From Clostridium sp. CAG:433 (GTDB lineage: Bacteria > Bacillota_I > Bacilli_A > RF39 > UBA660), in NCBI GenBank assembly GCA_000433675.1, contig FR893565.1, forward strand, positions 55 to 64,054: a stretch of 64,000 nucleotides of DNA. Reading direction: 5' to 3'. The stretch's first letter is position 1; each line of letters starts with the position of its first letter. The position numbers and the translations under genes are program-made. Below the pieces are notes generated by a model that saw only the letters and a list, made by a program, of their open reading frames with translations, was not told the origin of the DNA and searched no databases. This document shows, piece after piece, positions 8,072 through 64,000 of this stretch.

Positions 8072-8097
8072 AAAAAGAGTTCAAATGAACTCTTTTT
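8072..8097 (-). terminator. Rho-independent terminator after the giant adhesin gene
   Basis: The hairpin AAAAAGAGTTCA-ttt-TGAACTCTTTTT is followed by a T-run and abuts the TAA stop. Confidence 0.65.
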
Positions 8098-22520: not shown

Positions 22521-22555
22521 TTAAAAAAATCAAGATTTTTTAAACCTTGATTTTA
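22521..22555 (-). terminator. Rho-independent terminator after the paralog B gene, upstream of the giant adhesin gene
   Basis: The hairpin AAATCAAG-(11 nt)-CTTGATTT is followed by a T-run on the minus strand. Confidence 0.55.
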
Positions 22556-31264: not shown

Positions 31265-31273
31265 GTTCTCCTT

Positions 31274-32980
31274 CTATAATATGTTTTCATACATACTAAA
31301 CATTGGTATTATTACTGCAAGTAATATTCCACCTACTACAACTGCTAAGAATATAATCATAAGTGGCTCAATTAAAGCCTTAATTCTTGTTATTGCATTA
31401 ATATGTTCTTCTGCATAATAATCTGCTACCTTCTCCATCATTAAACCTAATTGTCCTGTTTTTTCACCCGTAACAATCATTTGGTATGCTATATTTGGAA
31501 AAGCCCAATTATCTTTAAACGCTACTGATATATTTTCACCCTTTGAAAGAGCTATAACAGCATCATATATTATCGATTTATATATTTCATTATCTGTTAT
31601 TCTACCTAATATATCCATACTATCTGTTATAAATATATTATTATTAATAAGAGTCGCAAATGTTTTAGAAAACATTGTCATTTCGTTATAAATAATTATA
31701 TTACCTACGACAGGTATATGCATAATCATATATTGAATATTTGATTTAAATGAAACACTTTTTTTAAATAATATAACAAATGTAGATACTATTAAAAGTA
31801 TTACAAGTATTATTATTAAATACTTTGATCTAACAAAATTACTTATATTTATTATTGCTTTTGTAATACCTGGGAGTTCCGCACCTAGGTTTTTATAAAT
31901 ATTTACAAATTGTGGAACTACTGAAACAATAATATAAATAATTATTATAATTGCAAATATAAATACAAATAATGGATACATCATTGCATTTACCATTTCT
32001 TTTCTTGATTTCTCAACTGATTTATAATATTCTGCCTGTTCGTCTAATACTTCTGGTAAATCACCTGTCATTTCTGCAGCTTTTACCATATTTATTAAAA
32101 GTTTTGGAAATATTACACCCATTCTAATCATTGCTTCAGATAAAGTTGCTCCCATAGATAGTTCATATACAACTGATTTCCATATTGTTTTATCTGATTC
32201 TGTTTTAGATTGTGTTGATAATATTTTTATTGAATCTACTATTGGAATACCTGCTTTTAAATAAGTTGATAATTGTGTTAAATAAAATACTAATATAGAC
32301 TTTTTCATTGGTCTATTAAGTGCAATATCTGTATTAAACATATTGGCTTTAGCAACTGCTTTTATTTCATATACTTTATAACCTTCTGATAATAAATATG
32401 AATGAACATCAAGTTTTGAGTATCCTAAAAATGATCCTTTTTCTATTTTACCTTCTGGATTTAATGCAGAATACTTAAATATTAACTTTTCTGTACTTCT
32501 TTTAGCATCTTCTGAATTAATATCAAGCGCAACAATTTGTTTTCTTCTATCTTGTCTTTTATTTTTTTCAAATATATCTTTTTCTTTTATTTTTTGAAGT
32601 AAACTTTTTTTGTTTTGTTTTTGAAGTTCTTTTTGTCTTAACTTTTCTTTTCTCATTTCTTCTTTTGCTTTTTTATGCTCTTCTTTTGTTATAACAAATT
32701 CTTTAGCACTATCACTAGATTCATCATTTTTAAATTTTAATGTTTCATTTTTTATTTCTTCATCTCTAACATTTTTACTTAAATCTATTTTTTCTTTTGT
32801 GTTATTAGTATCTTTTTTCATAAGTTTATTAACTCCTAAATTTATACTTTTTACTATATTAAAAGGTAGTAAAATAATAAATAAAAATATTTTACCGATA
32901 TAACCAAAAATTGAAGTTTTATTATCTTTATCCATAATACCACCTATTATTCTATTTTCTATACTAGTATTATAACACAC
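31274..32980 (-). CDS. Type II secretion system F-family platform protein (PilC/ComGB-like). The likely true start is the ATG at 32933-32935.
   Basis: Two GspF repeats are present, with the characteristic 'kaamtYP' motif and three TM helices in the C-terminal two-thirds. The PilC-like cytoplasmic N-domain starts around FKYSALNPEGK. There is an unusual extra N-terminal region of about 150 aa with one TM helix and a Lys/Glu-rich coiled-coil-like segment. GGTGG sits 4-5 nt upstream of the second Met. A TATAAT box lies inside the track-predicted first codons. Confidence 0.8.
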   Translation of the reverse strand: MCYNTSIENRIIGGIMDKDNKTSIFGYIGKIFLFIILLPFNIVKSINLGVNKLMKKDTNNTKEKIDLSKNVRDEEIKNETLKFKNDESSDSAKEFVITKEEHKKAKEEMRKEKLRQKELQKQNKKSLLQKIKEKDIFEKNKRQDRRKQIVALDINSEDAKRSTEKLIFKYSALNPEGKIEKGSFLGYSKLDVHSYLLSEGYKVYEIKAVAKANMFNTDIALNRPMKKSILVFYLTQLSTYLKAGIPIVDSIKILSTQSKTESDKTIWKSVVYELSMGATLSEAMIRMGVIFPKLLINMVKAAEMTGDLPEVLDEQAEYYKSVEKSRKEMVNAMMYPLFVFIFAIIIIIYIIVSVVPQFVNIYKNLGAELPGITKAIINISNFVRSKYLIIILVILLIVSTFVILFKKSVSFKSNIQYMIMHIPVVGNIIIYNEMTMFSKTFATLINNNIFITDSMDILGRITDNEIYKSIIYDAVIALSKGENISVAFKDNWAFPNIAYQMIVTGEKTGQLGLMMEKVADYYAEEHINAITRIKALIEPLMIIFLAVVVGGILLAVIIPMFSMYENIL

Positions 32981-33044: not shown

Positions 33045-33368
33045 ATGTTTAATCCAAATCTACTTTATATGCCTGGAAGAAGTATTTTACCTATTGCTAG
33101 AAAAACAATAAATTGGGCTGGACTACTTAGTAATACACAAAAAACACTTAATATTGTTAATCAAGCAATACCTATTGTTTATCAAGTAAAGCCTATGATT
33201 AATAATGCTAAAACAATGTTTAAGATTGCTAGTGAATTAACTAAGTCAAATACAAATGAAAACTCAAATGTTCAAAACAATGCAAATGAAAGTAACAGTA
33301 CCCAAAGTAATAGTTATAGTGTAAATAATAGTTCATCAAATAATGATGGTCCTTCCTTCTTCATTTAA
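33045..33368 (+). CDS. Small hypothetical protein, possibly YqfQ-like, with an Asn/Ser-rich tail
   Basis: AAGGAGG sits 9 nt upstream of the ATG. It is the only plus-strand gene in this neighbourhood. It is followed by a bidirectional hairpin terminator. Confidence 0.5.
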   Translation: MFNPNLLYMPGRSILPIARKTINWAGLLSNTQKTLNIVNQAIPIVYQVKPMINNAKTMFKIASELTKSNTNENSNVQNNANESNSTQSNSYSVNNSSSNNDGPSFFI

Positions 33369-38208: not shown

Positions 38209-39477
38209 TTATTTATCTTTTTTCTCTTTTACTTTTCCTTTTTTAATAGACTCAATTTCAATTGTATTTGATAATGTATCTATTGCTTCTGGTTTTTCTT
38301 CCTTTTTCTTTTTATGAAATATCTTTTTTAATACTTCTTTTTTACATAAGAAATATCCAAGAACTATACCTAAAGTAAATGTTAGAAGCATACTTACTGT
38401 AAACATTATCCATTCACGAGTACTTGTTTCATCTGGACAAGTTTGTACTACTTTTTGCTCTTCTTTTTCTCTTGTTACTGAAAGTACATAAGTATCTTTG
38501 TTTTCAGTATCTTCACTTGTTACAATAATGTTAATTACATTTCTACCTACTTTTAAAGTAGTATTACCTTCCATATTTATTGTTGCATTTGGGTTTTCAG
38601 CCTCAGCAAGTATATTTAATTTTTTTGTTTTATATGGAACAGATAATGTATATTTTTTAGTATCCGCATTAAAATCTATTTTAAATTTATCTACTTTCAA
38701 ACTTTTTAATTTAGTATTTGCCTTTACAAGTTCTTCTTCTGTTGGTGTCATTTTAAGTGTTACTTTTACAACATATGTCTTAGTAGTTACTCCATCTTCA
38801 GCAGTTACTACAATTTTTATATCATTATCACCTTTAACTAAGTTTTTATAATTATCAGAAATCATTATTTTTGATCCTGAATTACTTGCAACTGCATTTA
38901 CAGTAAGTTCTGTTATATCAGTAATAGTAGTTGTATACTCTAATGTATTTTTATCAAACTTAGGATTTAATGTTGTATTTGGTATTTTTAGTGAACTAAG
39001 TGTTGCATCATTACTAAGTGATACAATTTTTACCATTGAACTTGTGTTAGTAGCATTTGCTGTTTTACCTGAAATAAGTACAACTCCAGAGCTATCAATA
39101 GTTAAATTACAATCTCCACTTTTAGCATTATTTTTAACTCCAAATACAATGGCTGCTAAAGTAGTATTTGTACTAATTGGTGCTCCACTAGCTTTTTTAG
39201 TAATTATAATTGGATTACCATTTACACCTATATCTGATACTTCACTGTTAGATGATTTATACTCTAATTTTGTTGTATCATATGATAAATTAATGCTGTA
39301 ACCCTGAATTGAATCTTCTGTTACATCAGAAGCTTTTACGTATACTGTAACCTCACTACCAGGTTTTGCAGTATCTACTGATTTTTCTACTTTAAATGTT
39401 AATGCACTTACCTTAATAGGCAAAAATATACTAAAAAGTGCAATAACAAAGGCAAATCTTAAAAACCCTTTTTTCAT
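38209..39477 (-). CDS. Surface protein with two cadherin-like beta-sandwich domains and a C-terminal TM anchor
   Basis: Signal peptide MKKGFLRFAFVIALFSIFLPIKVSA. Two modules carry the 'ATLSSLKI..TTLNPKFD.NTLEYTTT' and 'LKSLKVDKFKIDFNADTKKYTLSV' motifs typical of the cadherin-like beta sandwich family (PF12733). A C-terminal hydrophobic helix is followed by a KKKKEE basic tail. Confidence 0.6.
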   Translation of the reverse strand: MKKGFLRFAFVIALFSIFLPIKVSALTFKVEKSVDTAKPGSEVTVYVKASDVTEDSIQGYSINLSYDTTKLEYKSSNSEVSDIGVNGNPIIITKKASGAPISTNTTLAAIVFGVKNNAKSGDCNLTIDSSGVVLISGKTANATNTSSMVKIVSLSNDATLSSLKIPNTTLNPKFDKNTLEYTTTITDITELTVNAVASNSGSKIMISDNYKNLVKGDNDIKIVVTAEDGVTTKTYVVKVTLKMTPTEEELVKANTKLKSLKVDKFKIDFNADTKKYTLSVPYKTKKLNILAEAENPNATINMEGNTTLKVGRNVINIIVTSEDTENKDTYVLSVTREKEEQKVVQTCPDETSTREWIMFTVSMLLTFTLGIVLGYFLCKKEVLKKIFHKKKKEEKPEAIDTLSNTIEIESIKKGKVKEKKDK

Positions 39478-42952: not shown

Positions 42953-43378
42953 TTATACTAGTAACTTTGTTTTTGTTTCATTTATCCAAAAATAATCTTT
43001 ACTTTTAAAATCAATCACAAATAAACATTCTCTTGAATCAACTATATCTCTTATAAATGTGTTAATATTTTTATTAGATTTTATTTTTAAAAAAGTATTA
43101 TTTATAGTAAGTCTACTTATTTCACTATCACTTTCTATAATATGAACATTATCTGTTTTAGTATAATATATATCATCTCTATGTTTAAGCATAACATAAT
43201 TATTAAATATTCTTTTATTAAATGGTATTGTAATTTGTTCAAATAATCTAAATTTATTAATTAAATCTTCATCATTAGATGAATAAATATCATAAAACAT
43301 TTTAAACAAAATATTTGCTTTATCGTTATAAAAAGTCTGAAACATATTATTAATTTTAAATATATAAAAAGTTCTCAT
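42953..43378 (-). CDS. Hypothetical cytoplasmic protein
   Basis: 141-aa ORF in the same orientation as its neighbours. No recognisable motif. Confidence 0.4.
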   Translation of the reverse strand: MRTFYIFKINNMFQTFYNDKANILFKMFYDIYSSNDEDLINKFRLFEQITIPFNKRIFNNYVMLKHRDDIYYTKTDNVHIIESDSEISRLTINNTFLKIKSNKNINTFIRDIVDSRECLFVIDFKSKDYFWINETKTKLLV

Positions 43379-45422: not shown

Positions 45423-45458
45423 TTTTCTTCACCCAATCCCTTACTATAAAACATTATA

Positions 45459-45492
45459 ACAAAAAAAGTTACTATTTAAAAGTAACTTTTTA
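45459..45492. terminator. Bidirectional terminator at the end of essC
   Basis: AAAAAAAGTTACT-atttaaa-AGTAACTTTTT. The essC TAA stop lies in the T-run. Confidence 0.65.
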
Positions 45493-48400
45493 TATTTGTT
45501 CAATAAATTTGACATAAGTTGGGATTCCTCTTCTTATAACAAATCCAAAATTATATGGTACATCTTCTTTCATTTCAGGAACACGTTTACTTGTATTAAT
45601 TAAAATTTGTTCTCCAAGTCCATTTCCTAAATAAATACCATTACTTGAATTATAATTATCTTTAAACCAAGAATCATATGTAAATTTCTTTATCTTATCT
45701 AATGTATCTATTATTACAAAATTAATAACACCAAGATCTGCTAAATTTGCAAATAATGTATTCATTTCATTTTTTCTATCTGGACTAATCTTATTAATAA
45801 ATGATGATATACCAATTATTACACAGTTAACTTTATTTTTTCCATCAAATACATTTTTGTTTCCATTATTTGAATTATATAATTCCAACGAATCATTAAT
45901 ATATTTTTTAATAGCATCAAATACATTATTAAAATTTCCTTCAAAATAATTTGAATATGATTTGATTTTGTCATTTAAAGCGAAATTTTCTGCATTAATA
46001 ATTATATTTGTTAATGACTTTTTATTTATACATTGTTCAATAAATGGAGCACTAATTCCTTCAAGTAAAGTTATATCTTGTGATGTCATTATATTTACAA
46101 CATCTTTTGTAAAATCATATGTTGCAACTGATAAATCAAGCTTATTAATACCAAGTGCAAGTAAATTATTATTTTCTACTGCACTTCTGCAATCATCATA
46201 ACTTACTATTTCAGGAAGAATTGGTACTCTTCTAGCAATATAATTATACTTTTCTTTATTCTTATTGCAATAATCTTTTATATAATTTGGTATTTCAGAT
46301 TTTTCAGAGGCAAGCGCTGTTTGAAATTCATATATGTCATCTTCTTTGATAAGACCTCTACCAAATAATTTTGATGGATATGTCTTATGTACATTACCAA
46401 GTACAGTGCTATAATCGTCTTCACTATTAAGTTGAAGTGTAAATACTTGTCCAAAGTTTTGTTTTAACTTGAATCTTACACCATTAACTGTATTGACAGC
46501 AAGGACAAAGAAAATACCATATTTTGTACAATCTCTTGTTAATATATTAAGAATGTCCTCATGACTTTGGAAATTTTCAATATATGCTTCATAGTTATTT
46601 ATTATAATAACTAGATTTGGAATTATATTTCCACTATCTTTACAATAAGAAACATAATTACCATTATAATTTGAAAATAAACTTTTTCTTTCATCTATTT
46701 CAGTTTGAATCATCTTATATAAGTTTTCTATTTTTTCATCATCATTTGGATACATTATATCTCCCACATATGGAGAATTATTAAAACATCTTAAACTTTC
46801 TGATCCAAAATCAACAACATAATAGTTTACTTCATTTGGAGTATATGCAACCATTGATGAATAAATCATAGTTGTTATAAAGTTTTCTTTACCAGATCCA
46901 GCAGAACCATATATAATTGAATTACCTTTTTCTGTTAAATTAATAGTTAACAATCTTTGCTCTTGATTTGCTGGAACATCATACTCACCAACAACTGGAT
47001 TTAAAACATAATTCTTTTTAACATAATTATATTTTTTAATAAGATTATCAACAAATATACATTCTGGAATTTTACTAAGCCATAATGGTCTTGTAACTAT
47101 ATTCTCTTCTTTTGCTATATTTGATAAATATTTAACAATATTTATTAATTCTTCTCCATAATTTGCTGTAGACTTTTGTTCTACTCTAGTTTGAACAGTT
47201 CTAATTTTATAACCCATATTGTTTATAAAATCTATTGATGTATCTGATTGTCTTTTTAATGCATCTGTTGGAATATATTTTGTACCTGTATAAGCAGATT
47301 GTCCAAGTACAAATATTTCATTAAATCCAACTTGTAAATAAAATCTACCTGTTTGAGTTAAGAATGCTGCATCTGGTTGTTTTATAACCTCTGATGAATC
47401 ACTCTTATCCTGAACTCTTAAACATACTCTAAATCTTGTGTTACTCCATATCTGTGAATCAACAACACCACTTGGTTTTTGAGTTGCTAGTATTAAATGT
47501 ACTCCTAAACTACGTCCAATTCTCGCAGTACTTATTAATTGATCCATAAATTCTGGTTGTTGATTTTTAAGTTCAGCAAATTCATCTGCGATTATAAGTA
47601 AATGAGATACAGGTTCATCTACAACATGATTTCTATACATTTCTTGATATTTATAAATATCTACTGTACTTTCTTCTGATATTTCTCTTGCTTTATTAAA
47701 TAGTGCCTGTCTTCTTTTAAGTTCACTTTCTATTGACGCAAGTGATCTATTTATTTCATTTTTATCTAAGTTTGTAATTGTTCCAACTAAATGTGGTAAT
47801 TTTATTCCTAGATTTTGATTTTCAAATGCACCAGCAAGTCCACCACCTTTATAGTCTATTAATATAAACTGTACTTCATCAGGATGATAATTAACCGCAA
47901 GTGATAATATATATGTAATAATAAATTCTGATTTACCTGAACCTGTCATACCAGCAATAAGTCCATGTGGTCCATGATATTTTTCATGTAAATCTAGACT
48001 AATTTTTTCACCATTTTTTCCAACACCTACTGGCACTGACATACTAAGAATTGGAACATTATCAATCCATCTTTGCTTTGAATTAAATGACTCTATCTTA
48101 CCTATATTATACATTTCAAGAAAACCAAGTCTTTTAGGTATTATTCCTTCACCTTCATCTTTTATTTCTATTGGAATATTCGACAATGTTTTAAAACATT
48201 TAGGAAAGTTACAATCACTTAAATCTAAACTAAATTCTTGAACTAAACTATTTGATATATTTCTTGATATAGTTGATTTTTCTTTTGATACTTCAATAAA
48301 TGTTTGACATTGATCGGGTAAATTTGAAATTCTATCATTTAAAATAATTACACTAAACCCAACATAATTTTTATTGTTTATAATGTTATTTATTAAATCT

Positions 48401-50103
48401 ATATTTCTAACAGAATTAATTGAATCTATTATTAATACATATAATGAATCAAAATTTTCTATGCCTGACATGCTATTATTAAGCGCATCCATTCTTTTAT
48501 TATAAATTTTATCTAATTGATATGATACTTCCTTATATTCTTTTTCATTACTTGAAAAGTATCTTACTGATTTATCATTGCTCCATAAATGTGGTATTGA
48601 TCTTACTTCTTCATAATTATTTTTATTTTCTTCAGTTGTAAATATAACAAACTTTAAATCATCATAACTATGAAATGTTGAAAGTTGTAATAAAATATTT
48701 TTTATAATTCTATTTTGATAAATCTTATCTCCAATTATTGCGGATATATAATTTTCTCTAAATGAAAAAGGTATTGGAACATTTTCTAATAGTGTTTTAC
48801 TTGATTTTAATTCTTTTACTTTATCCAAAAGTACATCCTCTGTCATAGAAAAATGTTCTTCAGGATAAACAACATTTATATCAAGTGGAAGTTTACCACT
48901 TCCTAAGCTAACACTTAAAAAGTCATCATCTTCTATTCTTCTTTCCCAAAGTCTATCTTCTCTATTTAAAATTACTTTTTCACATTCGGATAAATTTAAA
49001 AATCTTTTATGCATTATATCTTGTTGATTTTGTTTTTCGTTTTCTATCTGTTTTTTTATTGAATCAATATATGCTGAATATTTCTTTTTTCTTTCTTTTT
49101 CTTTTTTCTTTTCTAATCTTTTTTGAAATCTATTTGTCAAAAGTGGCCACATTAAGAAACTTAACATCATCGCACCACTCATAACAAGTGATGGTATAGC
49201 ATTATTCATTGTTTGATTACCATTATTTACATTATTCATTGTTGTATAAAATGTCATAACAGATGTCATACTCATAGTAAGCATAGGTCCTATTGTTAAT
49301 ATTGCTGGCATTTCATTTTTATCTCCACCACCTGGAGGATTATCTACTCTTATTGAAATACTATTTATTGAGTATATAAATCTTGGTTTTCTATAAAAAT
49401 AATCCTCTTTTGAATAAAGTTCCATATCTTTTTCTTCTTGTGGTTCATCTATTCTATTTTGAGATAAATCTTGTTGCATCTCTACACTTTTCATAAATGT
49501 TTGAACATTGTTATAATTATTAGAAATACCTAAAACATAATTACCATCTTTTTTTAGGAGTAATAATTCTAGTCCAAGAATGAAAATTACATCACCTATT
49601 TCTATTTTTGTACCACTATTAACCTTTAATCCATTTATAAAAATATTTGTTTGATTATCATTATTTGTAATTATTATATTAGGACCCTCTTGTTTTATAG
49701 TAATAGCGTTAAATTGAATCGCATTAAAATTATAAGAAATTGTACAGTTACTATCTGAACCTATTGTAATACCCATAGGTAATTCAGTACTGCATGAATA
49801 AAAATGCATTTTTTCATATGTACTTGGCATAAATAAATATACTTTATCATACGAATATGCATAAGTTATCTCATAGTAAGAATTTTCTTTAGCAACAACA
49901 AAAGGAACTCTTTTAGAGTTCTCAACGATATAATAATCACTATTGCTTACTATTTTCCATTCACCATCTGAATTAGCCTCTAAATTAATGATATTTTTTT
50001 CTATTCCATTTTCATCAATCTCAGAAAGCCATATATTACCTGTTACTTTATTGGGCAACATATAAGTTAATAATTTATCATTTTTGGCTAAAACTACTTT
50101 CAT
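45490..50103 (-). CDS. essC: Type VII secretion system FtsK/SpoIIIE-family ATPase EssC (YukB-like)
   Basis: 1537 aa. Two N-terminal FHA-like domains. Two TM helices around residues 270-320. A strongly conserved D1 ATPase region ([23 protein letters not shown] ... DYKGGGLAG ... [22 protein letters not shown]). A degenerate D2 Walker A ([10 protein letters not shown]). D3 has no obvious Walker A. The stop codon sits inside a bidirectional hairpin/T-run terminator. Confidence 0.95.
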   Translation of the reverse strand: [1537 protein letters not shown]

Positions 50104-50125
50104 ATATCTTTTTCCCTTTCATTCT

Positions 50126-50380
50126 TTATATCAATATAAATTCAGTACCATTAACTATTCCAGAACCCTTAACATAAACATTAAGATCATAAACAATACA
50201 ACCATCTTTATCATATAAATTTAATTTATCAGTATCTACTAATGAATTATCTGATAATTCATTTATTACGTCAATACAATATTTTCTTATAGTTCCAACT
50301 TTTTTATTTATAGGTATAAATATATCATAACTTTTACTTAAAAGAGGAACATTTATTGTTATTAAAATCTTATTATTCAT
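50126..50380 (-). CDS. esaB: Ubiquitin-like T7SS protein EsaB/YukD
   Basis: 84-aa beta-grasp-sized protein immediately upstream of essC. The pattern 'ILITI...YD...P....VG.....I.......L.L.........L...GI.NG..L.L' resembles YukD. Confidence 0.7.
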   Translation of the reverse strand: MNNKILITINVPLLSKSYDIFIPINKKVGTIRKYCIDVINELSDNSLVDTDKLNLYDKDGCIVYDLNVYVKGSGIVNGTEFILI

Positions 50381-50405
50381 AAATTTCCTTTCATAGACTT
50401 AAATA

Positions 50406-51728
50406 CTAGTTTTTCTTTGACGTTGGATTTGCTAAACTTTTAAGCATATCAGAAGCCTCTGGCACATTACTCTTCATACCTAATTGTTCTTGTAAATATC
50501 CATCATATGGATTCTTTTTTACTCCAAGTAACTCTTGTGACGCCTTGTCAAAATCAAAGTTTTTTGCACTTGTATTAGTTCTTCTCATTGTATTTACAAC
50601 TCTTGGGTCTGGGAGATCTTTTTCAGGTGGATTTACTAAATTATTATAATCTTCAAGGAAAGAACCTGTAGGCTTTTTTGTAAGTGTATCGTTAGGTGTG
50701 GTAGTTGCATGATAATCACTTGTTGATCTTGAAGAGAAGCTTCTTGATGGACCAGCTGTTGTACTACCTCCACCATCACCTGAACCTGATGGACTAACAA
50801 GTGAATTAACAATAGATTGAATTGTAGCATAATTATATCCTGCAGCAGCTAAAGCTTTCTTTCTAGCATCGCCATTACCCCATTTTCCTGCTAACACTTC
50901 TTTTGCGATTGCCATATCAGTTTTAAATGTACCAGAAACACCTTTTTTAGCATATTCTGTTAAGTTTGGTCTTTTTATATTTAAGCTTTGATATGCAGTG
51001 CTTCCTGCATATTTTTTACTACTTGCAGATTTTAATGATAATGTTGTATTATCTGGTAATTGTTTTTCAAGTAGTAAAATATTACTTAAATAGTTTGTCC
51101 ACCAACTATCAATTGAATCTCTTTTTTTCATTACTCTTTGATATGCTGATAAAACTCTATACCATCCATAATATAAATAACTATCTTTTCCAACTGTACT
51201 TTTCATAGAATAAAAATTTTTATAACTATTATATAAAGCTGATCCATATGAATCAAAATTAGATTTTAGATTTTTTAGTTTTTGGTAATTTATTTTAAAA
51301 CTATTATCTAATTGTAATTGCGAAGTGCTATATATATTGTTTGATGAAAAAGTTGCAAGGCCTGATGAATCATTTTGTAAATTATCTATAAGATAAACCA
51401 TATTTTTTAGTTCTGAAGAAATTTTTTGGGCATATGCTGTTTTTGTAGAATAATCTGTCGTACTCTTCATTTTTAATTGTTGTTTTTGAATTAACTCCGC
51501 ATATTGTAAAACTTTTAAATATCCTTTAAGGAAAGTAATTAAGTGATCAAGTTGTTCATAATGTGTTTTAAGTGCACTAGACAATTTTCTAATGGCTGAT
51601 GAATCACATACACTTTCTACATTTCTAAAATTGTATGTTTTTAATTTTCTTACTTCCTTTATACAGTCATTACAAGTCATTAGCAAGTTAGATATTTTTA
51701 TATCTTTAAAATAATTTGTATAATTCAT
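50406..51728 (-). CDS. T7SS-associated soluble protein with an N-terminal helical domain, one Cpl-7-type (CW_7) cell-wall-binding repeat and a Gly/Ser/Thr/Pro-rich disordered C-terminus
   Basis: The motif MAIAKEVLAGKWGNGDARKKALAAAGYNYATIQSIVNSLV matches the Cpl-7 repeat consensus (..ViaGkWGNGeeRk.rL..aGYdY.aVQ..VNel). No TM helix is present. There is an L-K-G motif at about residue 67 in a predicted helical N-terminal region of about 200 aa. It is located between the WXG100 genes and esaB. Confidence 0.6.
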   Translation of the reverse strand: MNYTNYFKDIKISNLLMTCNDCIKEVRKLKTYNFRNVESVCDSSAIRKLSSALKTHYEQLDHLITFLKGYLKVLQYAELIQKQQLKMKSTTDYSTKTAYAQKISSELKNMVYLIDNLQNDSSGLATFSSNNIYSTSQLQLDNSFKINYQKLKNLKSNFDSYGSALYNSYKNFYSMKSTVGKDSYLYYGWYRVLSAYQRVMKKRDSIDSWWTNYLSNILLLEKQLPDNTTLSLKSASSKKYAGSTAYQSLNIKRPNLTEYAKKGVSGTFKTDMAIAKEVLAGKWGNGDARKKALAAAGYNYATIQSIVNSLVSPSGSGDGGGSTTAGPSRSFSSRSTSDYHATTTPNDTLTKKPTGSFLEDYNNLVNPPEKDLPDPRVVNTMRRTNTSAKNFDFDKASQELLGVKKNPYDGYLQEQLGMKSNVPEASDMLKSLANPTSKKN

Positions 51729-51744
51729 AATATTTTCCTACTTT

Positions 51745-52389
51745 CTACTTTATAAATTTTAATAATTCACTTAAGGATATCGCACCTGATGCAGTACTAT
51801 TACTATGTGATGCATTATCAACAATTTTGTCTGTTTGCTTAACGTTACTTCCAATACTATTTAAATCTTTTACCTTTTCATTTGTATTTGTAGTAGTTGT
51901 GTTAGTTTTTTGTGTCTTATCAGGTATCGGATAACTAGGATTAAGGTCTATTATTCCTGTTACAAGCGTATCAGTTGTTTTTAACTTTCCAATATAATTA
52001 GGTGTTTTTATGTTTATTTTTCCAATACCACTAACTATTTTTACATTTGATCCACCTGTTTTTGGAATCGAGATAGTTGGTGCTGAAAAACCTAGTTTTG
52101 CTATTTGCTCTGCATTTATTTCAGTATCTGTTGCTCTATTTTGTTCAACAATTTCTTTTATTGTTTCTAAATATAAAGGTAATGTTTTTTCTGTTACTTC
52201 TGGTATTTCCTTATATTTTTTACTAATTTCATTATAAAATTTATTTGCTGCTGTTCCTTTCCAAAAGCCACTTCTACTATTTGAGAATGAGTTAACTTTT
52301 TCAAATTGTTCATTAAGATCTCTAACAACTGCATTAATTCTATCACATATGTCAATGACAGCATCATATTTGATTGATGTATTATTCAC
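51745..52389 (-). CDS. WXG100-family protein with a roughly 110-aa Thr/Asn-rich C-terminal extension
   Basis: The N-terminal approximately 100 aa form a helical hairpin with a central W-x-G (SGFWKGTAANKFYNE), aligning with the three downstream small WXG100 proteins. The extension ends ...LSELLKFIK. Confidence 0.65.
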   Translation of the reverse strand: MNNTSIKYDAVIDICDRINAVVRDLNEQFEKVNSFSNSRSGFWKGTAANKFYNEISKKYKEIPEVTEKTLPLYLETIKEIVEQNRATDTEINAEQIAKLGFSAPTISIPKTGGSNVKIVSGIGKINIKTPNYIGKLKTTDTLVTGIIDLNPSYPIPDKTQKTNTTTTNTNEKVKDLNSIGSNVKQTDKIVDNASHSNSTASGAISLSELLKFIK

Positions 52390-52403
52390 TTTTATCTCAC
52401 TCC

Positions 52404-52703
52404 TTATATTTTTCTATTTAAAAAATGTGTTTCAAATTTTTGATATGCTTTTTTTACTTCTTTAATCGTGTTAGCATCATCTTCAACCTGATTTTGATAT
52501 GCTTGAAAAAATTTCACATAGTCTTCCATATTACTACAAAATTTTTCTGATGCTGCTCCCTTCCAATATGTGTTCAATTCACTTAAATATTGGCTTATTT
52601 TTGTATTATCACTTTTTATTGCTGCCGCACATTCGTTTATTTCTTCTGCTACCCTATCAAATTCAGCATATTCTACAATTAAATCTTCCATATTTTCCTC
52701 CAA
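52404..52703 (-). CDS. WXG100-family (EsxA-like) secreted protein
   Basis: 99 aa with a central W-x-G (LNTYWKGAASEKF). Helical-hairpin size and composition. Confidence 0.7.
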   Translation of the reverse strand: MEENMEDLIVEYAEFDRVAEEINECAAAIKSDNTKISQYLSELNTYWKGAASEKFCSNMEDYVKFFQAYQNQVEDDANTIKEVKKAYQKFETHFLNRKI

Positions 52704-52771
52704 ACCTTTCGTCAGTAAATACTAAAGTTTAATATTCACTGACCAAAGTCTCTATAGTATAGAGAACTTTA

Positions 52772-53056
52772 TTAACCCATAATTTGAGTATCTGTTTTTT
52801 TATAATTTTCAACAACTGATGTTAAATGAGCTGCTTCATCTGTTACAGCTTTATAAAAATCAGCAAATTTAGCACTAATTGTATTAAATTTTTGTTTTGA
52901 TTCCATTGCAGCATTACCAGCCCAAACATCTTCATTACCAATTTTAGATGATAATGTTGTTATTTCATCTAATATTGATTGCATTTCTCTTGCATAACTA
53001 TTTAAATTTGAGCTTACACTCATAATTTGAGAATATGTTAATGTTGATCCATTCAT
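52772..53056 (-). CDS. WXG100-family (EsxA-like) secreted protein
   Basis: 94 aa with a central W-x-G (EDVWAGNAAMESKQKF). Confidence 0.7.
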   Translation of the reverse strand: MNGSTLTYSQIMSVSSNLNSYAREMQSILDEITTLSSKIGNEDVWAGNAAMESKQKFNTISAKFADFYKAVTDEAAHLTSVVENYKKTDTQIMG

Positions 53057-53068
53057 ATTTTGTTCCTC

Positions 53069-53362
53069 CTATCTGATTCCGTCTTGGTTTGCTTCGTTAA
53101 CTTTTTGGTATGCATTTGCTGCACTTATTAGAAACTCACCCATTTCGCAAATTGTTTTATTTAAGACTTTCATATTTTCTATTTCAGCAGCTACTGCACT
53201 TGTATATTTTTCTGCATCGCTACCTTTCCAAGAATTTCTAAGATTTTCATTTTCACTAGTTATTTTATTTAAAACTTCTGAAAAATCATTACCTTTTTCT
53301 AGAATACTATTACCGATTTGTCTTGTTTGATTATAATCAATACTTAAATCCACAACCTTCAC
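53069..53362 (-). CDS. WXG100-family (EsxA-like) secreted protein
   Basis: 97 aa with a central W-x-G (LRNSWKGSDAEKY). GTG start, with GGAGG immediately upstream. A TTGACA-18-TATTAT promoter lies about 30 nt upstream. Confidence 0.7.
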   Translation of the reverse strand: MKVVDLSIDYNQTRQIGNSILEKGNDFSEVLNKITSENENLRNSWKGSDAEKYTSAVAAEIENMKVLNKTICEMGEFLISAANAYQKVNEANQDGIR

Positions 53363-53386
53363 CTCCCTCCGCTATTTTATACAAAT

Positions 53387-53416
53387 ATAATACCACTTAT
53401 ATTTACATCATGTCAA
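53387..53416 (-). promoter_or_regulatory. Internal SigA-type promoter (TTGACA-18-TATTAT) ahead of the first WXG100 gene
   Basis: Seen on the minus strand in the 84-nt gap between the GT2 pair and the WXG100 genes. A second TTGACA lies 34 nt further upstream. Confidence 0.5.
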
Positions 53417-53446
53417 TTATTACACAACTTTTTTATCCATATTGTG

Positions 53447-54379
53447 TCAATCATTATATATTTTTTTTGATAAATTAAAAAATAGATATTCAACCATATT
53501 TAATACATCATTATCACCTATATTTCCAAAAATAATATCATTTTTATCAGAGACTTTTAATTCAATACCATATTCATTAATTTTTTTATATAATTTGTTA
53601 AAGCTATCTTTCAGTTTTACAACATCACTTTTTGTTTTAAAGTATTTTACATATACATTTGAAAAATGAATTAATTCATTATATAGCTCATAAATTATTT
53701 TATATTCATCGAAGCCCCTTTTATCTGCTTCTTCTGCCATCCATAGCATATTTTCACATAATATAGGAACCTCATTATAACAATAATCTTCTATATTATT
53801 GGTTATACTTCCTTCTGTACATGAATAAAGTAATACATCGCTATTAATATATGAATATTTGTCTGTACCTATTTTCAAAAGTCTATTAAAACAATTATCC
53901 TCGCCATTTCTGCTATCATTAAATTGAAACTTATTTTCATCAATATATTTTCTTTTATATAATTTGCCATGTAATTGAAAACTAAAATCATTCGAAATAG
54001 TTAGTATGGTATTATCATAATTTTCATAATAAACATTACCGCAAATAATATCATTATTCTTAATATTTTTTAAAAGTGTTTCTAACGAATAAATATCAAT
54101 AAACATATCATCTGCATCTAAAAAATAAATATATTCACCATTTGAATGGTCTAAACCGTATTGTCTAGCAACTCCTGGTCCACTATTTTTATCAAGTTTA
54201 TATTCTATTATGTTAATTCTGTCTTTAAATTTATTTATAATATCTTTATAATCATGATCTGAACAATCATCAATTATATATACATTAATTTTGTCATTAA
54301 CCGTTTGCATACATATACTCAATAATGCTTTAGAAATTGTTTTATGTGCATTATATGCTGGAATAATTATATCTATCAT
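53447..54379 (-). CDS. Family 2 glycosyltransferase (GT-A fold)
   Basis: The N-terminus IDIIIPAYNAHKTI, together with the IIDDCSD and FLDADDMF (DxD) motifs, places it in GT2. It is paralogous to the upstream gene. Its start ATG directly abuts the upstream stop (TAAATG). Confidence 0.85.
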   Translation of the reverse strand: MIDIIIPAYNAHKTISKALLSICMQTVNDKINVYIIDDCSDHDYKDIINKFKDRINIIEYKLDKNSGPGVARQYGLDHSNGEYIYFLDADDMFIDIYSLETLLKNIKNNDIICGNVYYENYDNTILTISNDFSFQLHGKLYKRKYIDENKFQFNDSRNGEDNCFNRLLKIGTDKYSYINSDVLLYSCTEGSITNNIEDYCYNEVPILCENMLWMAEEADKRGFDEYKIIYELYNELIHFSNVYVKYFKTKSDVVKLKDSFNKLYKKINEYGIELKVSDKNDIIFGNIGDNDVLNMVEYLFFNLSKKIYND

Positions 54380-55324
54380 TTAATCATCCTCCAATCCTAT
54401 TTCTATTAAAAAATTATCGAATGTAACTAATGGATTAAGTACATTTTCAGTATATCCCTCTGTTACTGCACATTTCATTTTATATTGTAATATGTTATAT
54501 CTATCTATATCCGATATTTCAAGAATATAATCATCATAAATTTCTTTGATTTTTTTTATATTCTTTATTAATTCTTTATTTTTATTTAAAAAATCAAATC
54601 CATAATAAATAGTTAAAAGTGATTCATATGATAAGGATGCTAAATTTTCTTCTGAACATTTTCCTTTTACTCCACACTCTAATGCATAAAGCATTGATTT
54701 AGAATAATTGTATATAGAATTTTCTCTATAATTTTCCTTTCTAGTTAATGAGTTTTCATTATTCATCCATATATATGTTTTTTCATTAACAATATTCATC
54801 TTAGGATTATATAATAAAACTAAATGATTAAATGCGTTATCTTCTTCTGCATAGTAATTTGGAAATCTAATATTATTATCCTCTAGAAATTTTCTTCTGT
54901 AAATTTTACCATGAAGCGCTACTGTATCATTAACAAAAGTATTAAATTTATGCTCTCTAGTTTCTTCTAAAAAAGTACTAAAAACAACATCTAAAGACTC
55001 TTGTTCTATCTTTTTATACAATGTAATTATGGATAGTGGTGTTGCAAAAATATCATCTGAATCTATAAAAACAACATATTCACTGTTTGATTGATCTAAT
55101 CCATATTGTCTCGCATAACCAGGTCCTTTATTTTCATTTAATTTTAGTTCTTTTATGTTAATAAAATCTTTAAAAAAATCTATTTCTTTACTATAATCCT
55201 TTATAGAATTATCATTTATAATATATACATTTAAATCTTCTGAATTTCTTTGATACGCTATAGAATATAATGTTCTTTCAATCGTTTCATGAGCATTATA
55301 TGCCGGAATAATTACATCTATCAT
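54380..55324 (-). CDS. Family 2 glycosyltransferase (GT-A fold)
   Basis: IDVIIPAYNAHETI, IINDNSIKD and FIDSDDIF (DxD) motifs. AGGAG sits 8 nt upstream of the ATG. It is the first long gene of the minus-strand operon that is divergent from lexA. Confidence 0.85.
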   Translation of the reverse strand: MIDVIIPAYNAHETIERTLYSIAYQRNSEDLNVYIINDNSIKDYSKEIDFFKDFINIKELKLNENKGPGYARQYGLDQSNSEYVVFIDSDDIFATPLSIITLYKKIEQESLDVVFSTFLEETREHKFNTFVNDTVALHGKIYRRKFLEDNNIRFPNYYAEEDNAFNHLVLLYNPKMNIVNEKTYIWMNNENSLTRKENYRENSIYNYSKSMLYALECGVKGKCSEENLASLSYESLLTIYYGFDFLNKNKELIKNIKKIKEIYDDYILEISDIDRYNILQYKMKCAVTEGYTENVLNPLVTFDNFLIEIGLEDD

Positions 55325-55381
55325 ATTTTACATCTCCTAGTATTTTAATATTAACACAAAAGAAAATAAAAAAAAACAAGG

Positions 55382-55513
55382 ATTTGAGTTTTTATGAATA
55401 TATTTCCTCATAAGTTTCCTGTTTTGATAAATTATTATCTATATTACTTGCTCTTTCCATCATAAGTAAGAATCCTAAAACTCCTACAACAATAACTACT
55501 AAATAACCAAAAT
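55382..55513 (-). CDS. Putative 43-aa single-TM peptide (MKKYFGYLVVIVVGVLGFLLMMERASNIDNNLSKQETYEEIYS), divergent from lexA. Candidate SOS-induced cell-division inhibitor (SosA/YneA-like position).
   Basis: This ORF is below the track's size cut-off and was found by translating the minus strand. It has a weak SD (GAAGGG). It starts about 40 nt from two LexA operators. Coordinates are accurate to within about 10 nt because of my manual indexing in this region. Confidence 0.35.
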
Positions 55514-55554
55514 ACTTTTTCATACTAACCCTTCTTTCTGATTAAATTCTATCA

Positions 55555-55596
55555 CGAACAAACATTCGTGTCAATAATGCTTCGAACAATTGTTTG
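55555..55596 (+). promoter_or_regulatory. Two Cheo-box-like LexA operators (CGAACAAACATTCG and CGAACAATTGTTTG). The second overlaps the lexA -35 box.
   Basis: The Firmicutes LexA consensus is CGAACRNRYGTTCG; each site matches at 12-13 of 14 positions. They are spaced 14 nt apart, between the divergent lexA gene and the small-peptide/GT2-T7SS operon. Confidence 0.7.
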
Positions 55597-55622
55597 ACAT
55601 TTTACACTTTGTATGTTAAAAT
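55594..55622 (+). promoter_or_regulatory. SigA-type lexA promoter, TTGACA-17-TAAAAT
   Basis: A perfect -35 hexamer, a 17-nt spacer and an A/T-rich -10 lie about 25 nt upstream of the lexA start. Confidence 0.6.
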
Positions 55623-55646
55623 GAAATTGTTATAAGGAGAGATATA

Positions 55647-56441: not shown

Positions 56442-57323
56442 TTATACTAATTCATACTCTCTTGCTATTATTCTGTCATCACTACAATATTCAATCACAT
56501 ATTTATTTTCTTTCTTGCATATTATTATTCCTATTGTTTTATTTTGATTTATACTTTTTAGATTTTTATCTATATAATTCATATAAAATTCTATTTGTCC
56601 TATATGTTCTTTTCTTAATTCAGTTACTTTTAGTTCAACAACTACAAAGCAATTAAATTCATAATTAAATAATAATAAATCAATATAATTATATCTATCT
56701 CCTATTTTTATTTTATATTCATTATCTATAAAACTAAATTCGTTGCCTAATTCTTTTAAAAATAATGATATATCTTCTAATATCAGTTTTTGAAATATTT
56801 TTTCTGATATTTCATTGTAACCACTTGTATTTCTTATTTGAATTGGATTCTTTACTAAATCTGGTACTTTTAATTCTTCTTTAGTTTTTAATTTTTTCTT
56901 TGTTTCTTCATCTAATCTTTCATATTCATTATTTTTTATTCTTTCTCTTAATTCTCTTACTGATAAGTTTTGTTCTTCTGTTATTTTTATATAATAATTT
57001 ATTTTATCTATGTCAAACCAAATAAGTTCACAATAATGGGAATAACTTAATTTGTCCGACACTGTCGGATGTTTTATTAAAACTTCATAAAATCTTCTAA
57101 AATATCTTAATCTTGTTGGTGTATAACCTTTACCGAACTCATTTGTAAGTCTTTTAGAATATTTTTTTATTATTCCTTCTCCATAATGTTTACCAGCTTC
57201 AGCTAATAATTTTCCAACATTATAATATGTAGTTAAATCACTTTTATTTTTACTATAATCTTTTACCTTTTTAGTAATTTCATTATTTACTAATTCTGTT
57301 TTTATTTCATCATAATAATTCAA
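56442..57323 (-). CDS. DUF1016/YhcG-family PD-(D/E)XK nuclease-like protein
   Basis: 293 aa. The N-terminal DUF1016_N-like helical region and the C-terminal PDDEXK signature (D...VVVELKVTELRKEHIGQ) are present. It starts at TTG, with AAGGAGG 7 nt upstream. Confidence 0.7.
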   Translation of the reverse strand: MNYYDEIKTELVNNEITKKVKDYSKNKSDLTTYYNVGKLLAEAGKHYGEGIIKKYSKRLTNEFGKGYTPTRLRYFRRFYEVLIKHPTVSDKLSYSHYCELIWFDIDKINYYIKITEEQNLSVRELRERIKNNEYERLDEETKKKLKTKEELKVPDLVKNPIQIRNTSGYNEISEKIFQKLILEDISLFLKELGNEFSFIDNEYKIKIGDRYNYIDLLLFNYEFNCFVVVELKVTELRKEHIGQIEFYMNYIDKNLKSINQNKTIGIIICKKENKYVIEYCSDDRIIAREYELV

Positions 57324-57335
57324 ATTTAATCCTCC

Positions 57336-58235
57336 TTATGTTAATTCATATTCTCTTGCTATTATTCTATCATCAGAGCAATATTTAATTACATATTCAT
57401 TGTCATGCTTACAAATAATGATTCCTACTGTATCATTTTCTTCAATAGTTTTTATATTTTTATCAATATAATTCATATAAGTCATAATCTGACCAGTATG
57501 TTCCTTCTTAAGTTCAGTTACTTTTAATTCTACAACTACATAACACTTGTATTTAATATTATAAAGTAGTAAATCAATATAATTATATCTATCATCTAAT
57601 TTGATCTTATATTCGTTATCAATAAAAGTGAATCCATTACCTAATTCTTTTAAAAATGTTGGAATGTCCTCAAGTATTAACTTTTGCAGTATTTTTTCAG
57701 ATATAATTTCTTTTTTATTACTATTTCTAATATGAATAGGATTTTTAACAAAGTCTATTATTCATATATCATCCCTACTTTTCAATTTATTTCTTGCATC
57801 AGCGGGTATTCTTTCGTACTCATTAGATTTTATTTTATTTCTTAATTGTCTAACATCTAAATTATAGACTTCACATTGATTGACATAATATTCTATTTTA
57901 TTTATATCATCAAATGATAACATTTCATACCAATGACTCCATGTTAACTTTCCCGACAATGTCGGGACTTTTTCAATTATATTATAAAATTGTTTAATTT
58001 TATATAATAATGATGACGTATATTTTTTACCAAATTTATTTGTTAATCTTTTAGAATAGTCCTTTATTACATTTTTTCCATACTTAGTATCTACATTTTT
58101 AAGTAGTTCTCCAACTTCTAAATATGTTTTTATTTTTTCCTTTGCTTTTGAATAATCTTTTACGTTTTGATATATTTCATGATTTAATATCTTGTTTTCT
58201 ATTTGTTGATATGTTTTATCTATTTCTTCTATCAT
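57336..58235 (-). pseudogene. Tandem duplicate of the DUF1016/YhcG gene, interrupted by a single in-frame TGA at 57762-57764
   Basis: The 157-aa ORF 57762..58235 aligns with the N-terminal half of the intact copy. The downstream 141 codons (57336..57761) remain in the same frame and translate to the PDDEXK half (VVVELKVTELKKEHTGQ ...AREYELT*). TGA is a genuine stop in this genome, since gyrA ends in TGA. Confidence 0.6.
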
Positions 58236-63373: not shown

Positions 63374-63958
63374 ATGATAAAATATTTATCGGATTTAGGG
63401 GTGATGTATATGATTAAATCTAATCAAATTTTAGATGAAAAGGATAAAAGACTTAGAAAAAAAAGTATTGATGTAACTTTTCCTTTAGAAGATAAATATA
63501 AAAAATTCATAGATGAATCAATTGAAATGCTTACTTTAAGCCAAATTGAAGAAGAAGCAGAAAAATATAATTTAAGACCTGGTATGGGACTTTCTGCAGT
63601 ACAAGTTGGAATTTTAAAAAGAATATTTGTAATTGTTTATGAATATGAAGAAGGAAAATTTGAAAATTATATTTTCATTAATCCAAAGATTTTAAGTCAT
63701 TCAGAAGAAATGGTTTATGTTGATGGTGGTGAAGGATGCCTTAGTGTAAATAGAGAAATTGAAGGTATCGTTCCAAGATATGCAAGACTTAATGCTGAAT
63801 ACTATGATATAGATGGTAATAAACATAAAATAAGATTAAGAGAAGAACTTGCGATAGCATTCCAACATGAATATGATCATTTAGATGGTATACTTTTCTA
63901 TGACAAAATAGATAAGAAAAATCCATATAAAAATCAAAATTTAATGAGAGCAATTTAA
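63374..63958 (+). CDS. def: Peptide deformylase
   Basis: All three PDF motifs are present: GLSAVQVG (motif 1), EGCLSV (motif 2) and QHEYDHLDG (motif 3, HExxH). Confidence 0.9.
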   Translation: MIKYLSDLGVMYMIKSNQILDEKDKRLRKKSIDVTFPLEDKYKKFIDESIEMLTLSQIEEEAEKYNLRPGMGLSAVQVGILKRIFVIVYEYEEGKFENYIFINPKILSHSEEMVYVDGGEGCLSVNREIEGIVPRYARLNAEYYDIDGNKHKIRLREELAIAFQHEYDHLDGILFYDKIDKKNPYKNQNLMRAI

Positions 63959-64000
63959 AAGAAAGTTTATTTTAAAAATGAAGTTGTCAACAAAAAGTAG

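Follow-up and report, generated by a model that had tools for sequence, protein, structure and literature searches.

Our analyses identify positions 45501-55389 of a 64,000-nucleotide stretch of contig FR893565.1 from Clostridium sp. CAG:433, an uncultured bacterium of the human gut (the stretch is hereafter the window, G+C content about 25%), as an accessory chromosomal island encoding a compact type VII secretion system (T7SS). The locus is almost certainly a T7SS: it holds the triad of an EccC/EssC-type ATPase, WXG100 protein(s) and a small ubiquitin-like protein encoded beside the ATPase gene. We are just as confident that no accessory membrane genes are encoded locally, EssB/YukC, EsaA/YueB and EssA having no match in the island, in the scanned open reading frames (ORFs) of the window or in the 10 kb beyond either of its ends. 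By a narrow preference, we read the locus as a further T7SS variant, in which a core of EssC and a ubiquitin-like protein would export polymorphic cargo that is probably glycosylated in the cytoplasm.

Knowledge of T7SS in Bacillota comes almost wholly from T7SSb, in which EssB (a bitopic membrane pseudokinase), EsaA (polytopic, with a long extracellular domain) and EssA (a small membrane protein) are essential. The island points to another variant in uncultured bacteria prevalent in the human and ruminant gut, with maybe the smallest set of components yet seen, and it bears in this way on what minimally forms a T7SS channel.

The island and its conserved core

The island consists of nine tightly packed minus-strand ORFs, separated by gaps of 0-84 bp, in the order GT2-GT2-w97-w94-w99-p214-p440-p84-essC. 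An initial annotation of the window had placed a minus-strand locus at 45490-55324, and its gene order and coordinates stand. The features are as follows (lengths in amino acids, aa).

45501-55389, no strand assigned: strain-variable island of about 9.9 kb, exactly nine genes, GT2 through essC
54380-55324, minus strand: GT2 of 314 aa, soluble GT-A glycosyltransferase
53447-54379, minus strand: GT2 of 310 aa, soluble GT-A glycosyltransferase
53387-53416, minus strand: promoter-like site upstream of w97 (TTGACA, 18 nt, TATTAT, TG extension)
53069-53362, minus strand: w97, conserved WXG100 protein, EsxA-like
52772-53056, minus strand: w94, conserved WXG100 protein, EsxB-like, with C-terminal YKKTD
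52404-52703, minus strand: w99, a WXG100 protein that varies between strains and ends in a conserved YxxxE tail (AYQKFETHFLNRKI)
51745-52389, minus strand: p214, WXG100-like N-terminus and Thr/Ser/Asn-rich tail, putative cargo or co-secretion partner
50406-51728, minus strand: p440, family-specific helical N-domain (residues 1-260), one CW_7 and a variable Ser/Thr/Gly-rich tail, putative T7SS cargo
50796-50912, minus strand: CW_7 (Cpl-7 type) repeat within p440, residues 273-311
50126-50380, minus strand: p84, ubiquitin-like protein of 84 aa, TsxB/EsaB-type, without a C-terminal Gly-Gly
45490-50103, minus strand: essC/TsxC, FtsK/SpoIIIE-type ATPase of 1537 aa
45461-45491, minus strand: A/U-rich hairpin and U-run 3' of essC, a modest terminator-like site

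The borders of the island are defined by an empty site in metagenome contig L011 (related loci and contigs are designated here by L numbers), in which window position 45500 is joined straight to 55390, the order is tkt, 43-aa ORF, lexA, and the flanks are 93-96% identical to the window in nucleotide sequence. The island does lie between tkt and lexA, as annotated, but the 43-aa transmembrane ORF separates lexA from the first GT2 gene. No obvious direct repeats or tRNA were seen at the junctions, whose sequences were read by eye only. The terminator after essC, described initially as strong, proved to be a modest A/U-rich hairpin of 10-11 bp followed by a U-run (-8.6 to -11.2 kcal/mol, z -1.57 in a fold of 45423-45495), undetected by a G+C-based terminator scan. 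The promoter-like site of w97, a consensus match alone, agrees at 11 of 12 positions, and such matches in the region are barely above chance.

Among strains with 99-100% identical LexA, three diverged alleles of the island and one empty site were found. With respect to the window (allele A), allele B (L020, L022, L029) is 55% identical in w99, 43% in p214, 52-55% in p440 and 85-91% in the GT2 genes, and allele C (L023, L024) 42%, 48%, 42-44% and 65-68%, respectively. EssC is 90-97% identical between alleles, with p440 at 42-55%, and all three alleles retain complete ORFs. In the comparison of alleles C and A, residues 1-235 of EssC are 63% identical against 95% for its remainder and 93% for the intervening p84 gene; in this single allele pair the EssC N-terminus co-varies with w99, p214 and p440, a hint of possible contact between the FHA region and either cargo or a partner specific to the allele. 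The very same EssC was recovered in 46 collection blocks, the contigs coming from gut metagenomes, with human gut named for some.

EssC matches the NCBIfam EssC equivalog TIGR03928 over residues 235-1532 with 991 bits (cut-off 778), and PF01580 at E 1.6e-44. Its D1 ATPase is canonical, as the initial annotation had it, with the Walker A motif GMTGSGKS (residue 718) and the Walker B motif LLIIADE (residue 835); GSAGSGKE, at residue 1066, resembles a further Walker A. Hydropathy reveals two helices of weak hydrophobicity (about residues 266-288 and 301-323), which make EssC the only membrane protein of the island, no other island protein having hydrophobic helices. The N-terminus is degenerate: the FHA match (residues 112-173) remains below the Pfam threshold at E 0.019, and the region reads GS...QFNAI where relatives show ...SRQHA, the EssC N-termini of relatives giving FHA and Yop-YscD_cpl matches. 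In T7SSb, the N-terminal FHA domains of EssC are devoid of the residues that bind phosphothreonine. The database entry of the protein is CDD29965.1, named 'FHA domain containing protein'.

The p84 gene adjoins essC on its upstream side across a 22-bp gap. Structure comparison assigns its product as a small ubiquitin-fold protein; Pfam (including its YukD model) and NCBIfam returned nothing, and PDB profile searches, whether with 4 sequences or with 35, yielded nothing above noise; p84 is too diverged for the Pfam YukD model. Since p84 abuts essC and p440 lies upstream of p84, p440 does not occupy the position of essB, where it had initially been placed.

Four WXG100 paralogs had been proposed. 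Three of them pass the PF06013 gathering score of 27.3 with 42.5, 34.0 and 36.1 bits, each with a WxG motif at residues 45-47. The E-values are 8.2e-11 for w99, which also matches DUF3130 (E 8.8e-5), 8.1e-9 for w97 and 3.6e-8 for w94. The fourth, the 214-aa protein, has only a WKG motif at residue 43 and stays below threshold with the WXG100 models (WXG100 E 0.019, TIGR03930 E 0.0044). In distant lineages w97 is 73-78% identical, and w94 is 62-72% identical in lineages with EssC about 60% identical. Across L003, L004, L023, L026 and L030 this pair remains 62-78% identical, whereas w99, p214 and p440 fall to 23-32%, a difference that fits an EsxA/EsxB-like pair plus variable cargo.

Between strains, dN/dS is 0.06-0.22 for essC, p84, w94 and w97 (0.10-0.15 for w94, 0.12-0.22 for w97), which shows that the four are maintained; to judge from these ratios, their products are under strong purifying selection. 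That selection bears on whether the island might be a decaying, non-functional T7SSb remnant, as its missing accessory genes, its absence from some strains and a split essC in L042 and L045 could suggest; with nine intact ORFs, one EssC sequence shared by the 46 blocks and complete ORFs in three alleles, we consider this extremely improbable.

The absence of the accessory genes was assessed by Pfam scans covering, at 1-43400, every ORF that reached 100 aa and, in the rest of the window, most of those reaching 60 aa, and by NCBIfam scans of the island proteins and unannotated ORFs. Neither EssB model (PF10140, TIGR03926) matched in the island, the scanned ORFs or the 10 kb on either side; the same searches were negative for EsaA/YueB; and the EssA model TIGR03927 found no match, the gaps between the island genes being too small for a further gene. 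The absence of the three genes from the locus, claimed initially, thus holds, and the set that the initial annotation had envisaged just beyond it was not found, contigs reaching 10 kb past each window end carrying housekeeping genes only. The 43-aa transmembrane ORF was considered as EssA and rejected: it lies outside the island, is kept in the island-free strain and is divergent to lexA, with LexA-box-like sites.

A compact, divergent T7SS, as first proposed, is supported, and the arrangement recurs in related lineages. EssC-based scans recovered loci with 59-63% identical EssC in metagenome-assembled genomes (MAGs) from rumen and from goat and sheep ileum, as well as further public MAG or metagenome contigs. 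In about a dozen lineages, with essC loci in at least four different chromosomal contexts, EssB, EsaA and EssA do not occur beside essC (L001-L004, L023, L026-L030, L037-39, L041, L042, L045). The module p84, w97, w94, w99, p214, p440 recurs in L003, L004, L023, L026 and L030 in three gene orders, and other sister loci have essC, usually with p84, accompanied by different cargo or none. At L002 (15048-23911), the p84-essC core is joined by a protein of 2573 aa with an ADP-ribosyltransferase toxin domain at its end; a 92-aa ORF and the gene of an ADP-ribosylglycohydrolase come next, together a likely toxin/immunity set. At L028, the core is paired with RHS and M15/VanY peptidase proteins; and at L001, essC stands with no other system genes at all. 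A highly prevalent 'Mollicutes bacterium' lineage has a 42% identical essC with an intact SRQHA FHA motif, followed by a p84 homologue and two genes of about 73 aa. EssB, EsaA and EssA are not seen within 10 kb at any of these loci. Whether the three proteins are absent from the whole genome is, in our estimation, evenly balanced.

The variable trio and the glycosyltransferases

The proteins w99, p214 and p440 are encoded by the most variable genes of the island, at 41-55% identity between strains with 99-100% identical LexA. None of the three has a signal peptide, a transmembrane segment or a toxin domain, and each carries either a WxG motif at residues 43-47 or an N-domain of WXG-like type. 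The w99 tail is conserved in homologues, those of L026 and L030 bearing 250-aa Ser/Thr-rich N-terminal extensions, and p214 homologues hold the slot between w99 and p440, with 43-48% identity between alleles. Because the trio is hypervariable, lacks Sec signals and combines WXG-like N-termini with YxxxE tails, we regard it as probably cargo rather than machinery. The exchange of the trio for other proteins beside the p84-essC core of L002 and L028 agrees with this reading.

Full-length homologues of p440 form about 22 clusters at 90% identity, all other matches being to the CW_7 of endolysins only. What is conserved is the N-domain of about 260 aa; CW_7 comes next in some homologues only, and the protein ends in a hypervariable tail rich in Ser/Thr/Gly/Pro, in many cases built of tandem repeats. 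HMMER, run exhaustively on 1.84e9 proteins, yielded only 29 representatives related to the N-domain, and one of ten family members gives a weak WXG100 match. The CW_7 repeat reported initially in this soluble protein is present as a single copy (PF08230 E 5e-18, 65 bits against a cut-off of 25, residues 273-311), aligns to the Cpl-7 repeats 5i8l and 4cvd, and accompanies no transmembrane segment. It is missing from the p440 homologues of L023, L003, L004, L026 and L030 and is consequently allele-specific; these alignments rule it out as a defining component. On this evidence p440 is read as behaving like a polymorphic substrate, not a conserved structural part.

The initial annotation had left room for p440 as a cryptic EssB pseudokinase. 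An AlphaFold model (pLDDT 48, of low confidence) is all-helical, with helices at 44-88, 93-123, 148-173 and 183-222, and Foldseek found no match in the PDB at E <= 1e-3 other than the CW_7 repeat itself. The p440 family profile gave nothing below E 0.05 against PDB sequences, solved LXG structures included. Since the protein is predicted helical, with no transmembrane segment, no significant PDB neighbour and no profile match in the PDB, p440 is ruled out as a cryptic EssB.

A related proposal, also made initially, is that p440 and the glycosyltransferases stand in structurally for EsaA, EssB and EssA, forming or preparing a conduit through the wall. The peptidoglycan-binding CW_7 would suit such a role, T7SSb recruits a wall hydrolase, EssH (PMC13059805), and L041 encodes beside essC a 582-aa Ser/Thr-repeat protein with a LysM-like segment, seen by eye only. 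We nevertheless judge it quite improbable, since CW_7 is wanting in most homologues, p440 is the least conserved gene of a hypervariable trio and has neither a transmembrane segment nor a kinase-like fold, sister lineages with the p84-essC core have no p440, and the GT2 genes travel with Ser/Thr-rich proteins.

The same variability could indicate an antibacterial system, with the trio as polymorphic toxins and the glycosyltransferases conferring immunity by modifying the envelope of the producer. T7SSb toxin modules are similarly hypervariable, true toxin/immunity pairs occur at sister loci, and the divergence of the glycosyltransferases tracks that of the trio (identities fall from 85-91% in allele B to 65-68% in allele C). 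However, no toxin domain was detected in p440 or in ten members of its N-domain family, the variable parts being low-complexity Ser/Thr/Gly repeats, and the island contains no small immunity-like genes, which leaves this explanation very improbable.

Both GT2 genes of the initial annotation were recovered with PF00535. The 310-aa protein (E 4.7e-25), which has no transmembrane segment, finds its closest solved relatives in TarS (5tze, E 7e-14), GalT1 (5hea) and TarP (6h1j), and the 314-aa protein (E 4.7e-23) in TarS (E 2e-12), GalT1 and TarP. With these nearest solved relatives, the acceptor could be teichoic acid or protein. The enzymes might be unrelated to the secreted proteins and, like TarS and TarP, add sugars to wall teichoic acid or to some other polymer of the wall. 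In line with this, the NCBIfam models that come nearest, though all fall far short of their cut-offs, describe polysaccharide and teichuronic-acid enzymes, and the trio-bearing L004 has no adjacent glycosyltransferases. Against it, GT2 genes stand beside the trio in four of five lineages (L030 having GT8 in addition) and stay next to Ser/Thr-rich proteins through three gene orders, and flippase, polymerase and teichoic-acid biosynthesis genes are not adjacent in the window, LicD in L044 being the sole exception across loci.

The association was also approached from the glycosyltransferases, by selecting six of 673 homologues, related to the 314-aa GT2 at 42-49% identity, on GT similarity alone. 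Half of them (L041, L042, L045) have essC and a ubiquitin-like gene no more than 10 kb away: L041 combines five glycosyltransferases, a WXG-like protein and the 582-aa repeat protein with these two genes, and in L042 and L045 the two are accompanied by GT2 genes and by proteins that are WXG-like or helical without a Pfam match. A fourth (L043) is a GT2 pair beside a WXG-like cluster. In the remaining two (L040, L044) a GT2 pair is found directly 3' of a signal-less Ser/Thr-repeat protein among housekeeping genes, with no essC nearby; these proteins (L044, 7766-9994; L040, 7946-8974) are mostly Ser/Thr-rich tandem repeats, that of L044 having about 35 copies of SNGSVSG(A/T)PT. Such gene association favours a protein acceptor for the GT2 enzymes, and we hold the wall-polymer explanation to be rather unlikely. 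That the trio itself is glycosylated by the GT2 enzymes is suggested by gene association only, and we consider it plausible but marginally short of an even chance. A literature search touching on T7SS and glycosylation, with terms not specific to the question, returned no report of glycosylated T7SS cargo.

As a separate observation, the L044 and L040 repeat proteins share a short motif, Y-W-x-D-G...G-V/A-x-M-G-Y/W-T-D; a similar segment was noticed, by eye only, in a 235-aa ORF after the L042 GT2 pair, for which BLAST gave no match.

Relation to known systems and proposed mechanism

T7SS diversity of the sort lacking EssB, EsaA and EssA is already documented: eight further variants, T7SSc-j, were defined from RefSeq genomes in 2024, all sharing a triad of WXG100 (TsxA), ubiquitin-like (TsxB) and ATPase (TsxC) proteins (Garrett, Higginson and Palmer, PMC11217815). 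Compared with T7SSb, the island appears alike in its EssC, with an FHA-like N-terminus, two predicted transmembrane helices, an active-type D1 and a score above the equivalog cut-off, as well as in its WXG100 proteins, the small ubiquitin-fold gene beside essC and the strain-variable substrate module. It differs in that EssB/YukC, EsaA/YueB and EssA are not found at the locus or within about 84 kb, in that its conserved WXG100 genes are a pair instead of a single esxA, in that its ubiquitin-like protein is not recognised by Pfam YukD, and in that its variable cargo is linked to glycosyltransferases and not to toxin/immunity genes. Because three defining components were not found locally, we do not file the locus as T7SSb, although its ATPase is T7SSb-type by the EssC model.

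The closest likeness in number of parts is to T7SSg, which also has two WXG100 core proteins, very few components and WXG-like partners beside candidate substrates; TsgC, however, has no FHA, and T7SSg includes the DUF5050 beta-propeller TsgL, whereas the island has an FHA-like N-terminus and no beta-propeller or DUF5050. Parts of T7SSc-f and T7SSh-j (kinase, PPM phosphatase, vWA, DUF6382-FHA, Ig-repeat TsxI, EspG-like protein, AAA+ TsfV) were not detected by Pfam or NCBIfam in the nine island proteins, and PMC11217815 lists neither CW_7 proteins nor glycosyltransferases among the components. The portion of its supplementary text available to us does not include the lineage of the island, and no variant beyond T7SSj emerged from a literature search that touched on the matter with terms not specific to it.

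Two further systems invite comparison. As in the accessory-Sec pathway for serine-rich-repeat (SRR) adhesins, genes for soluble cytoplasmic glycosyltransferases (GT2, with GT8 in relatives) adjoin those of Ser/Thr-rich repeat proteins and of an ATPase dedicated to export, and the solved structures nearest to the GT2 proteins include GalT1, a glycosyltransferase of a serine-rich adhesin; in contrast, SecA2, SecY2, Asp and GtfA/B genes are not found, the candidate substrates have no signal peptide or LPXTG anchor, and the export machine is a T7SS, so the likeness is functional only and presupposes glycosylation. With LXG/Lap systems, p440 shares a helical N-domain of about 200-260 aa, a variable C-terminus and a gene beside small WXG100/DUF3130-like proteins; yet it has no PF04740 match at E <= 0.1 and no solved-structure match, its C-terminus is of low complexity and not an enzyme toxin, and an immunity gene is lacking. 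The AlphaFold model does suggest helical hairpins for p440, though at low confidence.

Sequence, fold and conservation show a core of the EssC-type hexameric ATPase, the ubiquitin-like p84 and the conserved WXG100 pair w97/w94. In the mechanism that we propose, the transmembrane helices of EssC would form the membrane channel, with the ubiquitin-like protein aiding its assembly, and the w97/w94 dimer would prime the ATPase through the C-terminal YxxxD signal, export proceeding without need for EssB, EsaA and EssA, or at least for any encoded locally. The cargo would be the trio w99, p214 and p440, helical proteins with Ser/Thr-rich low-complexity tails, which the two soluble GT2 enzymes could O-glycosylate in the cytoplasm before export, by analogy with accessory-Sec serine-rich-repeat adhesins; in the allele of the window strain, CW_7 would then hold p440 on the peptidoglycan. 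The likely role would be a variable glycosylated surface coat, not toxin delivery.

Several points weigh against this reading. The partners could be encoded elsewhere, because only about 84 kb of one genome were inspected, and in neither S. aureus nor B. subtilis is any of EssB, EsaA and EssA dispensable (PMC4949537; bioRxiv 10.1101/2025.01.24.634720). A partner may exist because EssC keeps an FHA-like region, which binds EssB in T7SSb, and an unseen one stays possible because YukD bridges YukB and YukC in canonical T7SSb (PMC9600267; bioRxiv 10.1101/2025.01.24.634720). On the side of the cargo, the relation of p440 to LXG-type targeting domains is unproven, with its model at pLDDT 48; dN/dS for w99, p214 and p440 is 0.46-1.0, values inflated by saturation and poor alignment; the GT2 proteins are no less close to TarS and TarP, glycosyltransferases of wall teichoic acid; and the trio of L004 has no glycosyltransferase beside it.

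The points on partners are also those that speak for an ordinary T7SSb with EssB/YukC, EsaA/YueB and EssA at another chromosomal locus, the island then representing ATPase, ubiquitin-like protein and substrates; an EssC above the equivalog cut-off, with FHA detected outright in relatives, agrees with it. The six T7SSb core genes are normally contiguous, though, and about a dozen lineages, in several contexts, lack the partners next to essC; the nine-gene island is gained or lost as a unit, so an island-free strain would carry orphan partners; the ubiquitin-like protein lies beyond the reach of the Pfam YukD model; and variants without these partners are known. We accordingly consider a divided T7SSb unlikely, without dismissing it.

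A broader form of the proposal, that in a widespread clade of uncultured low-G+C gut Bacilli EssC and the ubiquitin-like protein are the sole machinery genome-wide and export GT2/GT8-O-glycosylated Ser/Thr-repeat proteins as a hypervariable wall-attached coat, is speculative and in our view doubtful. If true, the accessory-Sec pathway for serine-rich adhesins would have an equivalent in a T7SS. The recurrence of soluble glycosyltransferases and signal-less Ser/Thr-repeat proteins near EssC suggests an undescribed class of cargo, glycosylated surface proteins instead of toxins; the pairing of enzyme and substrate is now concrete, and the strong variability of the cargo between strains hints at selection by phage or host immunity.

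Neighbouring genes

The 43-aa single-pass membrane ORF (MKKYFGYLVVIVVGVLGFLLMM..., 55392-55523, minus strand) is divergent to lexA and retained in the island-free strain. The intergenic region at 55524-55646 contains two LexA-box-like sites (CGAACAAACATTCG, CGAACAATTGTTTG) and strong promoter-like hexamers on both strands, and the ORF looks like a SosA/YneA-type SOS cell-division inhibitor. Because the GT2/T7SS genes lie directly downstream of it with no predicted terminator, SOS read-through into the island is conceivable.

An intact YhcG/DUF1016 nuclease gene occurs beside a split or truncated second copy (157 aa plus a 49-aa remnant) at 56442-58235. The second copy is intact (299 aa) in L006, and L011 (3759-4863) has a Bro-N gene instead, which makes the region a second strain-variable spot next to lexA. 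At the right end of the window (about 63958-64000), where many assemblies break, some strains (L013, L014) have an IS element (HTH_Tnp_1 ORF and rve integrase) 3' of the peptide deformylase gene.

Further left, the region covering 5408-8014, 8096-22447 and 30452-32980 encodes a giant 4783-aa protein with at least ten Listeria-Bacteroides (Flg_new) repeats, downstream of which three ORFs of 620, 628 and 300 aa (22553-26301 and 28057-28959) have no Pfam or NCBIfam match. T7SSg and T7SSh are reported beside Tad pili; here the proximity of the two systems in the window is probably coincidental, because housekeeping genes separate them. The window also encodes a cohesin and cadherin-like surface protein and the sporulation-associated SirA and YqfQ (38209-39477, 42953-43378, 33045-33368), with YlbD/YlbE in the left flank and CotE in L028; these sporulation-associated genes suggest that the uncultured low-G+C lineage may form spores.

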